Shown one piece after another: positions 10,122-42,704 of a DNA stretch of 64,000 nt (position 1 is the first letter of the stretch; each line of letters starts with the position of its first letter). Source of the stretch: a virus. Where the stretch lies: the IMG/VR virus record IMGVR_UViG_3300034062_002027; one strand, 5' to 3'. A program made the translations under genes and the position numbers. The notes below the pieces were generated by a model. The model was not told where the DNA came from. It saw only the letters and a list, made by a program, of their open reading frames with translations, and did not search any database.

Positions 10122-10328
10122 ATGAAATTTGTACACCACGACACGGGCGAATGGGTTCGCCACAACCACAACACTGCGGCAACACGCACATCCAGCAGTG
10201 TCGTTGAATACGAAAACCTCAACGACATCGACAACAACTTTGTGCGGGACACCTTTGCATGGATGCTGGACAACGGCATGACTGTGACTAACTGCGGCTC
10301 CAGCGTGTTTCAAATTCGCACCGCTTGA
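10122..10328 (+). CDS. hypothetical early protein
   Basis: 68 aa, behind a hairpin (10063-10082), a GTTTAAAC and ACTGGAGAA. Confidence 0.6.
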   Translation: MKFVHHDTGEWVRHNHNTAATRTSSSVVEYENLNDIDNNFVRDTFAWMLDNGMTVTNCGSSVFQIRTA

Positions 10329-10375
10329 CCCCTTCCATTTAAACAAGATACAATCACTAGCACTGGAGAATTGAT

Positions 10376-10954
10376 ATGACTACAACCAACCGTGAAGACT
10401 GGCTTTCAGCCGCCGTGAGTGAACTGCGCCCCTTCTTCGATGCAGTGGGTGCGCCCCTGCCAGCGAACGTTCGTGTGACCTGTGGTTTCCCGTCCAACGC
10501 CAAGCGCTCGGGTGCGATTGGTGAATGCTGGGCAGACACTGCCTCCGCTGATCAGACCTTTGAGGTTTTGATCAGCCCTGTGCTGGATGACCCCTTGCGG
10601 GTGTTCGATGTGCTGGTGCATGAGTTGTGCCATGCCACTGCTGGGGCAATGAACCACGGTGTCAACTTCCAAAAGGTTGCCGCCTTGATGCACCTTGTGC
10701 CGAGCGCTGGCCCCAAGGGCTGGAAAGCCACTGGCCCGTCAGCCTCATTCATCCCTACATTCGGGTCAATCATTGACTCGCTGGGCTCATACCCTCATGC
10801 CGCCCTGACCATGTCCAACCGCAAGGTGCAGACCACAAGGATGCTCAAAGCAGTGTGCCCGTCCTGTGGGTACACCGTGCGCCTCACCTCTAAGTGGGCG
10901 GCCCTTGGCCTCCCTTCCTGCCCCGTCGATTCCGACACCCTCAACCTCGCTTAA
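10376..10954 (+). CDS. SprT-like zinc metallopeptidase-fold protein with C-terminal zinc ribbon
   Basis: 192 aa. It contains VLVHELCHATAG (HExxH) and CPSCGYTVRLTSKW...SCP. Confidence 0.7.
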   Translation: MTTTNREDWLSAAVSELRPFFDAVGAPLPANVRVTCGFPSNAKRSGAIGECWADTASADQTFEVLISPVLDDPLRVFDVLVHELCHATAGAMNHGVNFQKVAALMHLVPSAGPKGWKATGPSASFIPTFGSIIDSLGSYPHAALTMSNRKVQTTRMLKAVCPSCGYTVRLTSKWAALGLPSCPVDSDTLNLA

Positions 10955-10967
10955 TTGGAGACCTGCC

Positions 10968-12431
10968 ATGACTGACCTGCAACTCAAAATCAAAATCTTG
11001 GAATTGCCCATCGCAGTGGTGCTGGGTGCTCATGCCCAGTATGGGCGGGGCACTTTTTCGGGCACACCGTCCGAGCAAAAGTCCAAGGCCGCTGATTACC
11101 TGATCTCTTGCATTCGGGCCAACAACCTGACCCTTGATGAAATCAGGAACGCCACACCCGTGAAGCCCGTGTCCACATCCGCTCCATCGGTGGATGTGTC
11201 TGCCATCACCGCCGTTGCCAACCGTGCCGAGGCGTCTGCCCTTGATGCCCACTCCAGCCTGAGTGCCTTGCGACTCACCCTGCGGGATGTGGAGAGCCAA
11301 CTCACCTGTGAGATCAGAGACCGCCGTGATGACATCCTTGATGTCAAAGATGCCCTCGACAAGATGGCCTTCCAAGTCGGACAGGTTTCCATTGATGACC
11401 GTAAGGTTCAAGATGCCGTTGCCAAGGTGGTCGCTGATGCGTTTAAACCCTTTGAGCAAGCCGTGAAAGCCGCCGGGGCTCAGGCTGTAGTCGCAGACCT
11501 TGCATCTGTCCAAGTGGTGGATGTCAAAACCTGCTATGACGCTTTTGGTGTCGATGTGGTGGATACCAAGGGAAACCCCCTGAACGTGAGCATCTGGAAT
11601 GACCCGTCTGCCCCTGCGGTTGACCCTCACTTCATCTGGACTGATGACATTCTCCAGCACCTGATCTTGTCTCAGGACTCGGGTGAGTCGGTCTGGTTCG
11701 GTGGGCCAAAGGGTACAGGTAAATCCGAGACCGCCCGTCAGTTTGCCGCCGTTACGGGCCGTGCGTTTAAACGCATCAACTTCCACAAGTACACCAGCGC
11801 CGAGGATTACATCGGTGCGGTGGGTTTGGAAAACGGGCAGACCGTGTTCAAGCGAGGCGACTTCCTCGCCGCCTTTACGCACCCCTCGACCGTCATCCTG
11901 TTGGATGAGGTGACCAACGCTGACCCCGGTGAACTGGCCCCGTTGAACGGCTTTTTGGAGCCCAACAGCGCCGTGTCATTCGGTGGGTCTGTCCAGACCC
12001 GTGCCCCCGGTGTGCTGGTGTTTGCCGCTGACAACACGCTGGGCAATGGTGACGATACAGGCCGCTACGCTGGCACACGCCAGATGAACAGCGCCCTTGT
12101 TGACCGCTTCGCCCGTGTGGTGCAGTTTGACTACCTGCCCCTAGCCTCTGAGGTGGAAGCCTTGGTGCGTCACACTGGATGCAACCCCAAGCTTGCCCTG
12201 CACATCCTTGAGGCTGTCCATGTGGCTCGGCGTCAGGTGCTGACAGGCGAGGTGATAGATGCTCCCTCCATTCGGTCGGTGATCGCCTTCATTCGTGCCT
12301 TGCGTGTCTTGCCTGTAGACAAGGCATGGGCGACAACCATTGCCGCCCGTCAACCAGCCGAGTCCCTTCCGGGCTTGTCTGCTATCTATGCGTCTTGCAT
12401 CTGCGAGACAACAATCAACAACTACTTGTGA
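10968..12431 (+). CDS. MoxR/CobS-like AAA+ ATPase with ~230-aa helical N-terminal extension
   Basis: I chose the ATG at 10968 (GGAG SD). Walker A is GGPKGTGKS and Walker B is VILLDEV. The segment ALVDRFARVVQFDYLP is typical of the CobS/AAA_5 type. Confidence 0.8.
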   Translation: MTDLQLKIKILELPIAVVLGAHAQYGRGTFSGTPSEQKSKAADYLISCIRANNLTLDEIRNATPVKPVSTSAPSVDVSAITAVANRAEASALDAHSSLSALRLTLRDVESQLTCEIRDRRDDILDVKDALDKMAFQVGQVSIDDRKVQDAVAKVVADAFKPFEQAVKAAGAQAVVADLASVQVVDVKTCYDAFGVDVVDTKGNPLNVSIWNDPSAPAVDPHFIWTDDILQHLILSQDSGESVWFGGPKGTGKSETARQFAAVTGRAFKRINFHKYTSAEDYIGAVGLENGQTVFKRGDFLAAFTHPSTVILLDEVTNADPGELAPLNGFLEPNSAVSFGGSVQTRAPGVLVFAADNTLGNGDDTGRYAGTRQMNSALVDRFARVVQFDYLPLASEVEALVRHTGCNPKLALHILEAVHVARRQVLTGEVIDAPSIRSVIAFIRALRVLPVDKAWATTIAARQPAESLPGLSAIYASCICETTINNYL

Positions 12432-12438
12432 GGTTCCC

Positions 12439-14052
12439 ATGAACATCGAAACCATCCTGACCCGCCCCTCTGTGCGTGGTCTTGAATTCCGTCTCGGCCT
12501 TGAAGCCTACGCCCACAAGGTGGGGTCTGCCCTTGGCCTGTCCCGTGTGCGTGTCCTCTGGAGGGCAGATGTCCAGACTGCTGGCATCAATGCCAACGGC
12601 GACCTGTACTTGGCGGGTGTGCCTGATGATGCCAAGGTGAGCCGCGCCTTGGTGGTCAAGTACGCCGCCTATGTGGTGCATGAGTTGTTGCACCACAAGT
12701 ACACCGACTTTGATGTCATGTCCCCTGAACAGTACATTCGCACCCTGCACAATGCGGTGGAGGATGGCTGGATTGAGAACACCGGGATTGCCTCTGGCTT
12801 GCTGGGTAACATCGGCCCCCTGCTGGGTGAGATGATCGACACCATGACCCGTGAGGCTTTGGCGACCGTCAAGGATTGGAACGATCCCCGCCAGTACCCC
12901 TACATCCTCGCTGTGCATTGCCGTAAACACGCCACTGTCAAGTGCCCCACCAACCCCAAGTTGACCGCCATCTTCGATGAGGCCGCACGTTGGTGCTTGA
13001 CTGCAAAGGACAGCAACCAGACCCTCGCAATTGCCGAGTGGGTTTATGAGCAGATCAAGCAAGCCAGCAAGGATGAGCCCAAGGGTGATGGCAAGAAAGA
13101 CAAGGACAAGGACGGCAAGGACGGCCCAAGCAAGCCCTCAGACGGGCCTACAAGCCCCGATCAGCCCGAGGGTGAGGACAAGGGTGCAGACAAGGCCGAT
13201 AAGGGCTCTGACGGCCCCGCTGGCCCCGTGCAATCACCCGAGGGTGTCGAGGCCGACCCCGTGGAGCCCAAGCTTGGCGAGGGTGGCATTGCTGGCGCTT
13301 ACTCCACTGACGTTTCACTCAGGGATGAGCGCTTCCACCTGTCCAGCCGCACCATCCCTGACTTGGTCAACGCACCCGTCCCTGCCAAGCTTCGCTATGA
13401 AGTTAAGCGCCTGTTTGATGACTCGGGTCTGTCTGACTTCACCCGCAACCGCAAGGCCGGGGTTGTCAACATCCATGCCCTGCCAACAGTGGCCACTGGC
13501 AACGACCGTGTGTTTAAACGCCGCCTTGAGGTGGAGGGCATTGACTCTGCGGTGGTGATCTGCCTTGATGTCTCGGGCTCCATGTTTGAGGTGGAGTCTT
13601 GGAGACCAAAGCCCCTGATCGGCCCCGCTGTTCAGGCTTGCCGTGCCCTGCTGGAGACGCTGGATGCGGCTGGGGTCAAGACTGCAGTGCTGTGCTTTGG
13701 TGGGCAGATTTCAGTGCCCAAGGGCTTCAACAAGAACGTCAAACAGGCAAGCACCCTGCTGGGCACGGTACAGGCTGGCGGTGGTACGAACGACTACGCC
13801 GCCCTGCGCTACGCCCACCAGATGCTGGCCCAGCGCCCCGAGCGCCGCAAGATCGCCTTTGTGATCACTGACGGGTACGGCAAGCCTGATGCTGTGAAAC
13901 AGCAAGTCGCATCGGGTAAAGCCTTGGGTGTGACAACCATCGGCATCGGCATCGGTGCTGATGTGTCGTGGATATACGGGCAAGCAGTGACTGTCCGGGA
14001 CATTGCCGACCTCGGCAACGCAAGCTTCAAGCAGATCAAGCTTGCGGCATAA
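12439..14052 (+). CDS. zincin-like (HExxH) + vWA domain protein (CobT/DUF2201-type partner of the AAA ATPase)
   Basis: I chose the ATG at 12439. The N-terminal region has VVHELLHHKYTD. A K/D/G/P-rich disordered linker follows. The C-terminal vWA MIDAS pattern is VVICLDVSGSM...GGGTNDYAAL...IAFVITDGYG. Confidence 0.75.
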   Translation: MNIETILTRPSVRGLEFRLGLEAYAHKVGSALGLSRVRVLWRADVQTAGINANGDLYLAGVPDDAKVSRALVVKYAAYVVHELLHHKYTDFDVMSPEQYIRTLHNAVEDGWIENTGIASGLLGNIGPLLGEMIDTMTREALATVKDWNDPRQYPYILAVHCRKHATVKCPTNPKLTAIFDEAARWCLTAKDSNQTLAIAEWVYEQIKQASKDEPKGDGKKDKDKDGKDGPSKPSDGPTSPDQPEGEDKGADKADKGSDGPAGPVQSPEGVEADPVEPKLGEGGIAGAYSTDVSLRDERFHLSSRTIPDLVNAPVPAKLRYEVKRLFDDSGLSDFTRNRKAGVVNIHALPTVATGNDRVFKRRLEVEGIDSAVVICLDVSGSMFEVESWRPKPLIGPAVQACRALLETLDAAGVKTAVLCFGGQISVPKGFNKNVKQASTLLGTVQAGGGTNDYAALRYAHQMLAQRPERRKIAFVITDGYGKPDAVKQQVASGKALGVTTIGIGIGADVSWIYGQAVTVRDIADLGNASFKQIKLAA

Positions 14053-14090
14053 ACCAACCGCCCCTTCGGGGGCTTTCAAGGAGAATTGAA

Positions 14091-14270
14091 ATGAACGCAG
14101 AACATGAATGGCACATTGAGTTGGACTACATCCTGAGCAAGGTGCGCTACGCCAAAGAGATTCTCGGTGAGGGCGGTCTCGACTGCGCCTACCGAGCCAA
14201 CAAGGAACTGGAGCCTGTGCTGTTTAGGCTTCAAGAACTGTGCGAGATAACCAAAGGAGAGACAGCATGA
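14091..14270 (+). CDS. hypothetical small protein
   Basis: 59 aa from the ATG at 14091 (AAGGAGA SD). A small GCCCC-TTCG-GGGGC hairpin sits just upstream. Confidence 0.55.
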   Translation: MNAEHEWHIELDYILSKVRYAKEILGEGGLDCAYRANKELEPVLFRLQELCEITKGETA

Positions 14271-15022
14271 AGACATTCACACCAGACTGGATTGCATGGA
14301 TCAAGACCAACGTGGAGGCTGGTGTAAACAAGGATGCCATCTTCAAGATACTGCTGGACGCTGGTCATGCTCACGACTACATCCAAAAGGAGATGGGCTA
14401 CACACCCAGCCTTTGGCTTGGAGTGTCAGACAACCCTCGCAGGGCATTGCATGAATTCCTTCCGAACTACACCCGCACAGGCTTTACAAAGCTTCCAGCC
14501 CCGACCCTTTTGTTTCGCAAGATACTGGAGTTTTATCGTGTGGGGCTGGAGTCTCAAAAGGACGAGTTTGTGGAGGGGGAGTTCATTGTCAACCCCTCCA
14601 CGCCGAGCCGAGCGCCCAGCACCCTGATTGACCTGCCTGATGAACTGCGCACAGAGATACACGACACCCTCAAGCCACTGATTGAGGCGTGGTGCGGCCT
14701 GTCTGTTGAGCCGTCCTATGTGTACGGGATTCGCCTGTACAGGGACAAGGCCGTACTCAAGCCGCACCGTGACCGCATTGAGACCCACATCTTTGGGGTC
14801 ATCTTGAACGTTGACCAGAACGTAAGGGAGGACTGGCTTTTGATGATTGAGGATCATGCGTACAACGAGCATCAAATCACCCTCAAGCCGGGGGAGATGT
14901 TGTTCTACGAGAGCGCCCGTTTAAAGCATGGCAGACCAATCCCGCTCGAGGGTAGCGTCTTCGCCAATATCTTTTCCCATTTCACACCCACTGGTTACAT
15001 ACCGCCAAAGGAGACAACATGA
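14267..15022 (+). CDS. 2OG-Fe(II) oxygenase superfamily protein
   Basis: ATG at 14267 (AAAGGAGAG SD). It contains PHRDRIETH (HxD) ... ARLKHGRP (distal His/Arg), with double-stranded beta-helix spacing. The substrate is unknown. Confidence 0.75.
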   Translation: MKTFTPDWIAWIKTNVEAGVNKDAIFKILLDAGHAHDYIQKEMGYTPSLWLGVSDNPRRALHEFLPNYTRTGFTKLPAPTLLFRKILEFYRVGLESQKDEFVEGEFIVNPSTPSRAPSTLIDLPDELRTEIHDTLKPLIEAWCGLSVEPSYVYGIRLYRDKAVLKPHRDRIETHIFGVILNVDQNVREDWLLMIEDHAYNEHQITLKPGEMLFYESARLKHGRPIPLEGSVFANIFSHFTPTGYIPPKETT

Positions 15023-15827: not shown

Positions 15828-15829
15828 AA

Positions 15830-15868
15830 GGGGGGAGAAGTTTCGGCTTCTCCCCCCTGTTTTTTTTC
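15830..15868. terminator. rho-independent terminator between convergent units
   Basis: Perfect 11-bp stem GGGGGGAGAAG / CTTCTCCCCCC with loop TTTCGG, followed by TGTTTTTTTT. It sits between the plus-strand early block and the primase-helicase gene stop. Confidence 0.85.
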
Positions 15869-19257: not shown

Positions 19258-19354
19258 AAAAAAAGCCGCTTGCAACTGCGATCCCGGTAGCAACCTTGCC
19301 TAATACCTCTCAACAGAGCATTAGGAAAGGCGGAATCGCATGTGTAAGCGGCCT
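19258..19354 (-). terminator. long imperfect hairpin followed by U7 (candidate terminator or 3' structured RNA domain)
   Basis: On the minus strand, AGGCCGCTTACACATGCGATTCC pairs (18 of 23) with GGGATCGCAGTTGCAAGCGGCTT around an inner hairpin CCTAATGCTCT-GTTG-AGAGGTATTAGG. TTTTTTT follows. Confidence 0.4.
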
Positions 19355-19458
19355 CAATTTTTCGTTACTTGCTACGGCAACAGCTTCACTGTATCACAGC
19401 TTTTTGGAACTTGCAATAAAAGATTGCGAACGTTCTTAGGGGTTTACCCTATACATGT

Positions 19459-19533
19459 TGGTTGCGGAGGACGGACTCGCACCGTCGATCTTCTGGTTAT
19501 GAGCCAGACGGATTACTTCTTTCCCACCCCGCA
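19459..19533 (-). tRNA. tRNA-Met-like gene (anticodon CAT) with encoded CCA and atypical D/T loops
   Basis: Hand-folded cloverleaf. The acceptor stem is 7 bp (TGCGGGG/CTCCGCA), with U8. The anticodon arm is TCTGG-CTCATAA-CCAGA and the T arm is GACGG-TGCGAGT-CCGTC. The discriminator is A, followed by CCA. The D stem is only 3 bp, and G19 and U55 are replaced. Confidence 0.55.
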
Positions 19534-19538
19534 GTTAA

Positions 19539-19567
19539 AGTTTAAACGATGGTGGCTCAGCCTGCAA
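19539..19567 (-). promoter_or_regulatory. candidate sigma70 promoter for the tRNA-like gene
   Basis: On the minus strand: TTGCAG, 17 nt, TAAACT, 5 nt, then the tRNA 5' end. The -10 overlaps a GTTTAAAC octamer. Confidence 0.4.
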
Positions 19568-19654
19568 GCTCATCTGGTGAGCCTGCGTGCAAGCCTGCGT
19601 GCCTTTCGTGTAAACTGCACTGGCGGGAACCTCCCCCCGCAGTTGCTTCTCCTT

Positions 19655-20089
19655 TTAGCCCCGGCCCTTGCGCTGGGGCTTCTTTTTTGGGGCAACCTCT
19701 TCTATCTTCTCGATCATGATCTCTGCCCGAGGGTTCTCAGGATCAAGGCCCCAGTACGCATGGCGCTCTTTGACCTGACGGTCGTTCTCATATATCAGTC
19801 CCTGCATCAGGTCGAGGATCAGCGTCTCGTCCAAGTCAGGTCTGCGGCTTGCGTAATAGATATGCAGCGTCACCCGAAGGTCGCCGGTCATAAGGCAGGC
19901 GAGCGGCCTGCATTGCTGTTTAAACACATCTGAGTAGTTGAGCGCCTTTTCGGACTTGATGAGCCGGGACACCCCGCCGAAACGTACCATCCTGCGACTG
20001 TTGCTTTTTGATGCTGGCTCACCAAAAATAATTTGCACTAGGGCTTGCAATTCTGTTGTATCATCACTATTATTGAGTTTCTCAGTCAT
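19655..20089 (-). CDS. rusA: RusA-family Holliday junction resolvase
   Basis: 144 aa. It contains GEPASKSNSRR...SEKALNY...RPDLDETLILDLMQGLIYENDRQV, the RusA catalytic Asp pattern. Confidence 0.75.
   Translation of the reverse strand: MTEKLNNSDDTTELQALVQIIFGEPASKSNSRRMVRFGGVSRLIKSEKALNYSDVFKQQCRPLACLMTGDLRVTLHIYYASRRPDLDETLILDLMQGLIYENDRQVKERHAYWGLDPENPRAEIMIEKIEEVAPKKKPQRKGRG

Positions 20090-38030: not shown

Positions 38031-42704
<4,674 letters not shown>

Follow-up and report, generated by a model that had tools for sequence, protein, structure and literature searches.

A divergent CobS/CobT-like gene pair and an adjacent SprT-like zincin gene in an uncultured freshwater phage

Introduction

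What do a CobS-like AAA+ ATPase and a CobT-like protein with an intact HExxH motif do in a virus, and do they act together with the SprT-like zincin that is encoded directly upstream of them? This question is raised by three consecutive genes at positions 10376-14052 of a 64,000-nucleotide stretch of viral DNA (IMG/VR record IMGVR_UViG_3300034062_002027), which is referred to here as the window. A first-pass annotation, made by a model from the letters of the sequence, had described the three open reading frames (ORFs 1 to 3) as a triad of early genes and had noted that a phage-encoded, early-expressed version of the MoxR-vWA pair with two zincin modules has no established function. Host takeover, anti-defence and replisome remodelling had been named as possible roles.

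Pairs of this kind have been described before. The viral cobST cluster has been reported to be widespread in tailed phages and haloarchaeal tailed viruses, with a cobT that was often "mistakenly annotated as a peptidase" (PMC8651126), and a MoxR ATPase paired with a metallopeptidase-vWA protein is known from the group 2.2 jumbo phages (PMC7824862; Iyer et al. 2021). We found that ORF2 and ORF3 are a divergent new representative of these known viral cobST or MoxR-vWA-peptidase pairs, that ORF1 belongs to a known phage family of SprT-like proteins, and that the combination of the three is a lineage-specific arrangement in one freshwater phage lineage and not a general system. [quoted passage not shown]

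Results

The three genes and the CobS-like ATPase ORF2

The three genes lie tightly packed on the + strand, with ORF1 at 10376-10954, ORF2 at 10968-12431 and ORF3 at 12439-14052, and the gaps between them measure 13 and 7 nt. The consecutive, closely spaced order given by the first-pass annotation is thus confirmed. The genes encode proteins of 192, 487 and 537 residues, respectively. The mechanical ORF list had placed the starts of ORF2 and ORF3 at GTG 10866 and TTG 12340. These were replaced by the ATG codons at 10968 and 12439, each of which is preceded by a GGAG/GAGG ribosome-binding site and agrees with the N termini of homologues. Since each of the three proteins has between 409 and 1098 homologues in the databases, we regard them as products of real genes and not of chance ORFs. 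All motifs named by the first-pass annotation (HELCH, Walker A and B, HELLH and MIDAS) were found in them, and its domain calls, an SprT-like zincin, a MoxR/CobS-type AAA+ ATPase and a protein with HExxH and a MIDAS-containing vWA domain, hold.

The CobS-like AAA+ module of ORF2 comprises residues 188-487 (11529-12431, + strand), as supported by matches in Pfam, PHROG, PDB and hhalign searches. It contains a Walker A motif, GGPKGTGKS, at residues 245-253 (11700-11726, + strand), a Walker B motif, VILLDE, at residues 309-314 (11892-11909, + strand), and on the same strand the CobS signature ADNTLGNGDDTGRYAGTRQMNSALVDRF at residues 354-381, which follows the pattern NT.G.GD..G.Y.GT...N.A..DR of CobS. 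The module matches Pfam AAA_5 (E 1.5e-14, 54.6 bits, cut-off 22) and, just over the cut-off of 27, Pfam bpMoxR (E 2.9e-7, 30.2 bits), as well as phrog_249, which is labelled "porphyrin biosynthesis" (E 7.9e-41). Among solved structures the best match is CobS of Brucella (9ujv_A, E 5.7e-20, residues 212-443), and the match to NorQ in the same PDB profile search is weak (E 5e-4). When compared with Rhizobium CobS by hhalign, ORF2 aligns from residue 188 onward with a probability of 98.7%. With an ATPase above the Pfam cut-off and a MIDAS-vWA gene 7 nt downstream, ORF2 and ORF3 belong to the class of MoxR-type AAA+ ATPases with a vWA partner.

The remaining part of ORF2 is an N-terminal extension (residues 1-187; 10968-11528, + strand) that has no counterpart in canonical CobS. 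It is rich in A, V, D and L and poorly conserved over residues 1-140, with few invariant columns before residue 143, and it gave no match in Pfam, PDB or PHROG. Walker A starts at residue 245 in ORF2 and at residue 71 in Rhizobium CobS. The extension, for which the first-pass annotation had given about 230 residues, is therefore shorter: as CobS homology begins at residue 188, it amounts to about 175-187 residues, so that ORF2 has about 180 more N-terminal residues than CobS.

The CobT-like protein ORF3

The N-terminal domain of ORF3, a putative zincin (residues 1-210; 12439-13068, + strand), is modelled by AlphaFold2 (AF2) with a predicted local distance difference test score (pLDDT) above 90. 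It carries HELLH at residues 81-85 (12679-12693, + strand) and NAVEDGWIE at residues 105-113 (12751-12777, + strand). In the model, helix 1 is followed by a sheet of three to four strands, the HExxH helix (69-88), the Glu helix and four more helices, with N105, E108, D109 and E113 on the Glu helix. Next comes a low-complexity linker rich in D, G, P and K (residues about 212-312; 13072-13374, + strand; D16, G15, P12, K11), which was delimited by composition and pLDDT. Its length varies among homologues, and over residues 215-257 the pLDDT falls below 50, in agreement with the disordered K/D/G/P-rich linker of the first-pass annotation.

The segment that precedes the vWA domain (residues 313-366; 13375-13536, + strand) is homologous to the corresponding segment of CobT. 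Residues R319, L325, F326, G341, F359, K360, R361 and R362 are invariant in ORF3 homologues, and residues 327-366 have a low pLDDT in the monomer model. The vWA domain itself (13537-14052, + strand) has a complete MIDAS, formed by D377, S379, S381, T450 and D478, with DVSGS at residues 377-381.

The C-terminal half of ORF3 can be assigned in several ways. It matches Pfam VWA_2 (E 8e-13) and Pfam CobT_C (E 1.9e-7, 31.4 bits, cut-off 21), and its best solved relative in a PDB profile search is Brucella CobT (21vt_A, E 1e-10). An hhalign comparison of the ORF3 family with Rhizobium CobT gave a probability of 99.8% over residues 313-537 of ORF3 and 354-623 of CobT. The top Foldseek matches of the ORF3 model in the PDB are to NorD in NorQD complexes (E 5.6e-10), over the C-terminal half including the pre-vWA segment.

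An exhaustive profile search returned 211 cluster representatives of the wider ORF3 family at E of at most 1e-30, of which 32, with lengths of 530-850 residues, were sampled. H81, E82, H85, N105, E108, D109 and E113 are invariant in all 32, down to 21% identity, and so is the spacing between HExxH and the downstream Glu (H85 to E108). The MIDAS residues D377, S379, S381 and D478 are likewise invariant, and T450 is nearly so.

Relation to cobaltochelatase

In the CobSTN complex of Brucella melitensis, CobT has been described as consisting of three parts, an N domain of the M48C-like type, about 90 residues of disordered linker and a MIDAS-containing vWA domain, where the segment preceding the vWA domain forms the "shaft" that enters the CobS ring (bioRxiv 10.64898/2026.07.21.739949). 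ORF3 follows the same plan, with a zincin-like N domain, an acidic disordered linker, a pre-vWA shaft segment and a MIDAS-containing vWA domain, and the order of secondary-structure elements in its N domain fits the published description of CobT_N. Because an HExxH domain joined by a linker to a vWA domain is the architecture of CobT, ORF3 is not a new fusion. A version with two zincin modules cannot be upheld as something without precedent, as ORF3 has the standard architecture of CobT and both the viral cobST clusters and the jumbo-phage pairs had been published.

ORF3 itself does not match the Pfam CobT N-domain family PF06213. Four of the 32 sampled family members, all of them distant, do match it, among them one whose residues 52-297 score 26.0 bits (E 8e-6; cut-off 26.1), and these four members suggest a link between the N domain of ORF3 and that of CobT. 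When true CobT is aligned to ORF3, LRLACH stands at VHELLH and FDAVEQARVE at HNAVEDGWIE. In true CobT the first His of HExxH and its catalytic Glu have thus been lost, whereas ORF3 keeps the motif where CobT has RLACH.

For both ORF2 and ORF3 the closest sequence match in the PDB is the Brucella protein, and we assign the two genes by homology as a CobS/CobT-type, or viral cobST, pair. They are not bona fide cobaltochelatase subunits. ORF2 scores 61.6 bits against the NCBIfam equivalog PD_CobS (TIGR01650), for which the cut-off is 558.55, and ORF3 scores 40 bits against the CobT equivalog TIGR01651, for which it is 759.05. In contrast to the CobNST system, neither CobN nor a CobN-Mg_chel domain was found in the large ORFs of the window that were scanned against Pfam or PHROGs, and the pair lies beside phage replication genes and not in a cob operon.

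Related pairs in phages and plasmids

The combination of an HExxH-linker-vWA protein and an AAA+ ATPase is present in Microcystis phage Mae-Yong1326-1 and Roseobacter phage CRP-810. As in ORF2-ORF3, the AAA+ and vWA genes of the viral cobST clusters are adjacent, and the CobT-like proteins share HExxH, an N(A/C)LED motif, the low-complexity linker and MIDAS. The CobS proteins of Mae-Yong1326-1 and CRP-810 are also long (508 and 617 residues). However, the identity is only 24-31% and confined to the C-terminal halves, the extension of ORF2 cannot be aligned to theirs, and they have no SprT-like gene upstream. The pair of the jumbo phages, likened here by its published description, has the same architecture, in which a metallopeptidase is fused to the N terminus of the vWA partner of a MoxR-type ATPase. 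Furthermore, Vibrio cholerae ICP2 phages carry a CobT-like gene, and full-length structural matches of ORF3 in the BFVD come from uncultured Caudovirales, Gordonia phages, haloarchaeal tailed viruses and a Thermus phage.

The family is not confined to phages. About 1000 enterobacterial and Acinetobacter plasmids bear a CobT-like gene annotated as porphyrin or cobalamin biosynthesis, and members also occur on Klebsiella and Yersinia replicons. In the large conjugative plasmids pSx1 of Shewanella (IncP; locus L188, 929-5774) and pKOX of Klebsiella (MOBH; locus L189, 531-5001), a MoxR/AAA ATPase gene is followed by DUF3150 and a vWA gene, with one hypothetical gene between the ATPase and DUF3150 in pSx1. 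In both plasmids the vWA protein begins with an HExxH-bearing N-terminal part, and it has MIDAS and a linker of acidic repeats. A literature search on DUF3150 returned nothing informative. The E. coli plasmid pCTX (NZ_CP047004.1; 112 kb, non-mobilizable IncFIB; locus L191, 2252-5691) encodes a 702-residue "CobT" with HEVAH, NALED and DLSGS, followed by an AAA ATPase and then dnaE, on a replicon that is phage-plasmid-like. These plasmid pairs differ from ORF2-ORF3 by the additional DUF3150 gene in the conjugative plasmids and by the reversed order, with the CobT-like gene first, in the E. coli plasmid. They have no SprT-like neighbour, and their identity of about 28-31% extends over the vWA domain only.

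NorQ/NorD, CbbQ/CbbO and RavA/ViaA share with the viral pair a common logic of motor, adaptor and client, and the clients of these systems are known metalloenzymes. The fold match to NorD spans the C-terminal half of ORF3 and not its N domain.

ORF1, a member of a phage SprT-like family

ORF1 (10376-10954, + strand) is a 192-residue SprT-like minimal zincin with HELCH at residues 82-86, H94 and a C-terminal CxxC...CxxD at residues 161-185. It is a member of the known phage SprT-like family phrog_6361, which it matches over its full length (E 1.6e-39, residues 4-184 of 192), and it is 33-44% identical to genes annotated as "SprT-like protease" in 164 phage records. In a set of 15 diverse homologues, H82, E83, H86 and H94 do not vary. 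The tail of ORF1 reads CPSC...SCPVD (161-185) and offers three Cys plus an Asp (C161, C164, C182 and D185), whereas its relatives have CxxC...CxxH and the actinophage members do not have the first CxxC.

The AF2 model of ORF1 has a pLDDT of 78.8, with values of only 51-78 in the C-terminal zinc-ribbon-like region. Its top Foldseek match is proabylysin, a minimal metallopeptidase (4jiu, probability 0.99), and ORF1 thus has HExxH and a third His on a minimal zincin fold, as is characteristic of SprT/Wss1-type proteins. For gp46 of Arthrobacter phage Lizalica, which is 39% identical to ORF1, its authors report an HHpred match of more than 99% to SprT protease and the same top Foldseek match, 4JIU.

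The match to the cellular proteins is more distant. Against Pfam SprT-like (PF10263) ORF1 scores 17.5 bits (E 0.0038), below the cut-off of 25.6 bits, and an hhalign comparison of its family with E. coli SprT/YggI gave a probability of 56% (E 1.1e-4) over 69 columns that cover helix 1, the sheet and the HExxH helix. A PDB profile search with the SprT-like alignment returned only chance matches to Rubisco, and no Spartan structure was among the top 50 Foldseek matches of ORF1. "SprT-like zincin with zinc-ribbon-like tail", below formal Pfam membership, is therefore a fair description. Like the SprT, Spartan and Wss1 proteases, which act on DNA-protein crosslinks, ORF1 has HExxH with a downstream His, the fold of a minimal zincin and, at its C terminus, a small putative domain resembling a zinc ribbon, but its fourth zinc ligand would be Asp and not Cys or His, and a DNA-dependent activity of ORF1 or the other phage members is presumed by analogy. 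We also considered whether ORF1 and the N domain of ORF3 are paralogues; this was rejected, as hhalign gave a probability of only 21%.

Conservation of the triad

Two sets of IMG/VR loci were compared, and in both the order sprT-AAA-vWA holds on all contigs of sufficient length. In the second set the ATPase is present in 52 of the 53 loci with enough sequence and the vWA gene in 40 of 40. The viral scans kept the best 80 loci, and the second scan, with a diverse SprT alignment, likewise gave nothing but this freshwater lineage among its best 80. Across the syntenic loci the identity of the SprT-like protein ranges from 54% to 97%. As one and the same primase/helicase (61-89% identical) accompanies the triad in all of these loci, the synteny may reflect inheritance and not selection.

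Outside this lineage the linkage is not seen. The SprT-like genes of six inspected phages of Arthrobacter, Microbacterium, Dinoroseobacter, Bordetella, Burkholderia and Acinetobacter have no cobST neighbour; the genes around them encode DNA polymerase, DNA helicase, primase/helicase, SSB, RecA-like protein, exonuclease, sigma factor and integrase. The host genera of phages with SprT-like and with CobS-like genes barely overlap. Among 38 bacterial loci, none had an SprT-like gene near a related vWA gene. Apart from two mis-binned phage contigs, a scan of bacterial contigs with a closer ORF3 alignment yielded only distant vWA genes of the NorD/CbbO type, and there was no SprT-like gene close to any of these finds. 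Conserved linkage, as expected from the first-pass annotation, is thus found within the lineage and fails beyond it, and the triad cannot be upheld as a general unit.

Transcription signals

A sigma-70-like promoter candidate (TTGACC-18 nt-TACAAT; 10325-10354, + strand) is located 21 nt before the start codon of ORF1 and has 10 of 12 matches to the consensus in a consensus scan. The element TTGACCCCTTCCATTTAAAC...TACAAT occurs once in the window, and relatives that are at least 80% identical keep it in front of sprT. A GC hairpin, GCCCCTTCGGGGGC (14060-14073, + strand), is found 8 nt past the ORF3 stop codon and is followed by TTTC; it is possibly a weak terminator or attenuator. Further downstream, a strong bidirectional intrinsic terminator (15829-15858) with a stem of 12-13 bp, including 8 GC pairs, separates the + strand block from a convergent primase/helicase gene. 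Given a promoter-like element upstream and a hairpin and terminator downstream, co-transcription of ORF1, ORF2 and ORF3 is plausible. The early expression named in the first-pass annotation would follow from the position of the genes, and no RNA sequencing run was found that contains the region.

Many of the relatives with about 60-70% SprT identity do not have TTGACC...TACAAT upstream of sprT. About 60 nt upstream of sprT these relatives have a GC hairpin and then a conserved TGC(A/G)AGTG...GCAC motif, which may be a terminator plus a promoter of a different type. This motif was looked for in the window and was not found.

Genomic setting

The window is nearly the whole genome, of roughly 64 kb, of an uncultured phage, and the contigs on which proteins identical to those of the window were found reach 64,590 bp. 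The sequence recurs in metagenomes from lake water. A megablast search of the region against GenBank phages gave no match. Upstream of the triad, the - strand carries the genes for both terminase subunits, small and large, and for the portal, a primase/helicase gene converges from downstream, and genes for an exonuclease and a Sak-like annealing protein follow further on. The triad is therefore located in a non-structural, replication-proximal block, since the opposite strand carries the structural genes and primase/helicase and recombination genes are nearby. Nine neighbouring small ORFs gave nothing meaningful against Pfam.

Downstream of the hairpin GCCCCTTCGGGGGC there are a 59-residue ORF (14091-14270, + strand) and a 251-residue ORF (14267-15022, + strand). 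The latter matches phrog_2954, "ferrochelatase" (E 1.4e-15), but has no match in Pfam or NCBIfam and was found in none of the related loci, and the label looks unreliable. Elsewhere in the window, a 2302-residue ORF (27395-34306, - strand) contains Pfam ART-PolyVal (residues 1303-1445) and LPD38 (residues 2016-2187) and is a "polyvalent protein", one of a type believed to be delivered along with the DNA of phages or plasmids. A 1556-residue ORF (38031-42704, - strand) shows only a weak match to RTX repeats; the GC skew of the stretch at 38-40 kb is unusual (+0.28), and the 1556-residue ORF is overlapped by a long antisense ORF (38368-39504). A tRNA-Met gene (CAT; 19459-19533, - strand) lies within a mechanical ORF (19340-19933, + strand) that has no PHROG match. 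The contig CAITMU010000062.1, binned in a metagenome-assembled genome of an "uncultured beta proteobacterium", belongs to the same phage lineage (vWA protein 64% and primase/helicase 65% identical), which is either a mis-binning or a weak hint at the host.

Discussion

We propose that the viral pair is an ATP-driven motor-adaptor system by which a protein client is remodelled and probably also cleaved or processed, and that ORF1 is a separate, DNA-associated protease; to this reading we give an even chance. By analogy with the CobST and NorQD structures, ORF2 would form a hexameric motor of the MoxR class and ORF3 would be its adaptor, with the segment 313-366 entering the pore of ORF2. ATP hydrolysis by ORF2 would then pull on ORF3, whose MIDAS would grip an acidic residue of the client, and the client would be remodelled. 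The conserved HExxH...E suggests that the zincin domain, tethered by the linker, may cleave the client or ORF3 itself. ORF1 would act independently as a tri-His zincin similar to SprT and Wss1, presumably a DNA-associated protease, that has been captured into the same transcription unit. Remodelling or cleavage is favoured over the insertion of cobalt into corrin because the zincin site is conserved as strictly as MIDAS and is degenerate in true CobT.

Several points weigh against this reading. No peptidase was among the top 50 Foldseek matches of the full ORF3 model, a list dominated by vWA domains, and the fold of the N domain could not be assigned by Foldseek since vWA matches filled the list. 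The N domain matched no peptidase family in Pfam, and in a PDB profile search the domain on its own had no match. Its putative zincin fold is drawn from motif conservation, the order of secondary-structure elements in the model and the bridge via the Pfam CobT family. The conserved HExxH could serve metal binding or structure and not catalysis. This phage might instead hijack a CobN of its host. Finally, we found no biochemical or genetic data on a viral CobS/CobT-like pair in the literature, so the statement of the first-pass annotation that such pairs have no established function is still correct.

A bolder version of this proposal would hold that the pairs of HExxH-bearing CobT-like and CobS-like proteins are active ATP-driven proteases, aimed by MIDAS at host proteins in the course of takeover or anti-defence, that CobT is their catalytically dead descendant, and that in this lake-phage lineage the pair is coupled in one operon to a DNA-bound SprT-like protease as a viral analogue of p97-SPRTN. 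We consider this improbable.

Viral CobS and CobT may instead be products of auxiliary metabolic genes which dock on the CobN of the host and raise the level of cobalamin, for example for a B12-dependent ribonucleotide reductase. This has been put forward for the viral cobST (PMC8651126), and it agrees with the facts that the closest characterised relatives are CobS and CobT, that the shaft-like segment and MIDAS are conserved and that PHROG and GenBank labels read "porphyrin/cobalamin biosynthesis". However, the scores of ORF2 and ORF3 are 9- to 19-fold under the equivalog cut-offs, the zincin motif, degenerate in true CobT, is intact, and the scanned large ORFs of the window include no CobN. 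In addition, the pair of the conjugative plasmids is accompanied by DUF3150 and not by cob genes, and the family occurs on E. coli, Klebsiella and Yersinia replicons and in V. cholerae phages. E. coli is not known to have CobN or a de novo synthesis of B12. Since family members reside on E. coli replicons, cobalt chelation is unlikely as the general role of the family, and we regard the metabolic explanation for the viral pair as unlikely, too.

The position of the three genes could also mean that they form an obligate three-part machine, in which proteins that are bound or crosslinked to DNA would be unfolded by the motor and adaptor and passed to the SprT-like protease, either to clear the replisome or to remove host DNA-binding defence proteins. 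In eukaryotes p97 assists SPRTN in a comparable manner (PMC9127365). Within the lineage the synteny is strict (52/53 and 40/40), the gaps of 13 and 7 nt are short, and the genes share a promoter-like element and a replication-proximal position. On the other hand, the linkage of SprT and cobST is missing outside the lineage, as in the six phages inspected, the host genera of the two gene sets barely overlap, and cobST-like pairs elsewhere have no SprT-like gene. As the same primase/helicase is found throughout, the synteny is possibly just inherited. An obligate machine of this kind is thus doubtful, and independent action of ORF1, as proposed above, is preferred.

For the jumbo-phage pairs a role in the assembly or processing of virions has been proposed (PMC7824862), and a chaperone with a processing protease, similar to the MoxR-vWA pair p618/p892 of the Acidianus two-tailed virus, would fit the general function of the MoxR-vWA class in the maturation of protein complexes. 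In contrast to what such a role would suggest, ORF2-ORF3 is found in the non-structural + strand block of a phage of about 64 kb, next to the primase/helicase gene and with the structural genes on the opposite strand. Moreover, the homologues on conjugative plasmids, and the one beside dnaE on a phage-plasmid-like replicon, build no virions. A function in virion assembly is therefore decidedly unlikely.

A phage-borne MoxR-vWA-peptidase defence or conflict system, for instance for superinfection exclusion of other mobile elements, is very improbable: ternary systems of MoxR, vWA-peptidase and sensor have been described as acting against invaders (PMC7159879; PMC12839542) and ORF2 does match bpMoxR just over the cut-off, but PADLOC gave no significant match (two at E 0.002-0.008, with no stretch passing the threshold), no STAND-like, beta-propeller or other sensor was found among the neighbours scanned against Pfam or PHROGs, and the nearest relatives are CobS and CobT and not the clades of the ternary systems (Kaur et al. 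2020).

Overall, our data provide a corrected annotation of this phage region, in which the "triad" is an arrangement specific to one lineage. For the family the consequences are wider. Viral "cobS/cobT" genes are routinely counted in viromes as auxiliary metabolic genes for vitamin B12. This label is doubtful for a family that keeps the complete zincin motif lost in true CobT and sits on E. coli replicons. It is of interest for the whole family why the CobT-like proteins of mobile elements keep a complete zincin site, and on which client they act. If the pair is indeed an ATP-driven remodelling protease, it would represent a widespread, uncharacterised tool by which phages and plasmids manipulate their hosts.

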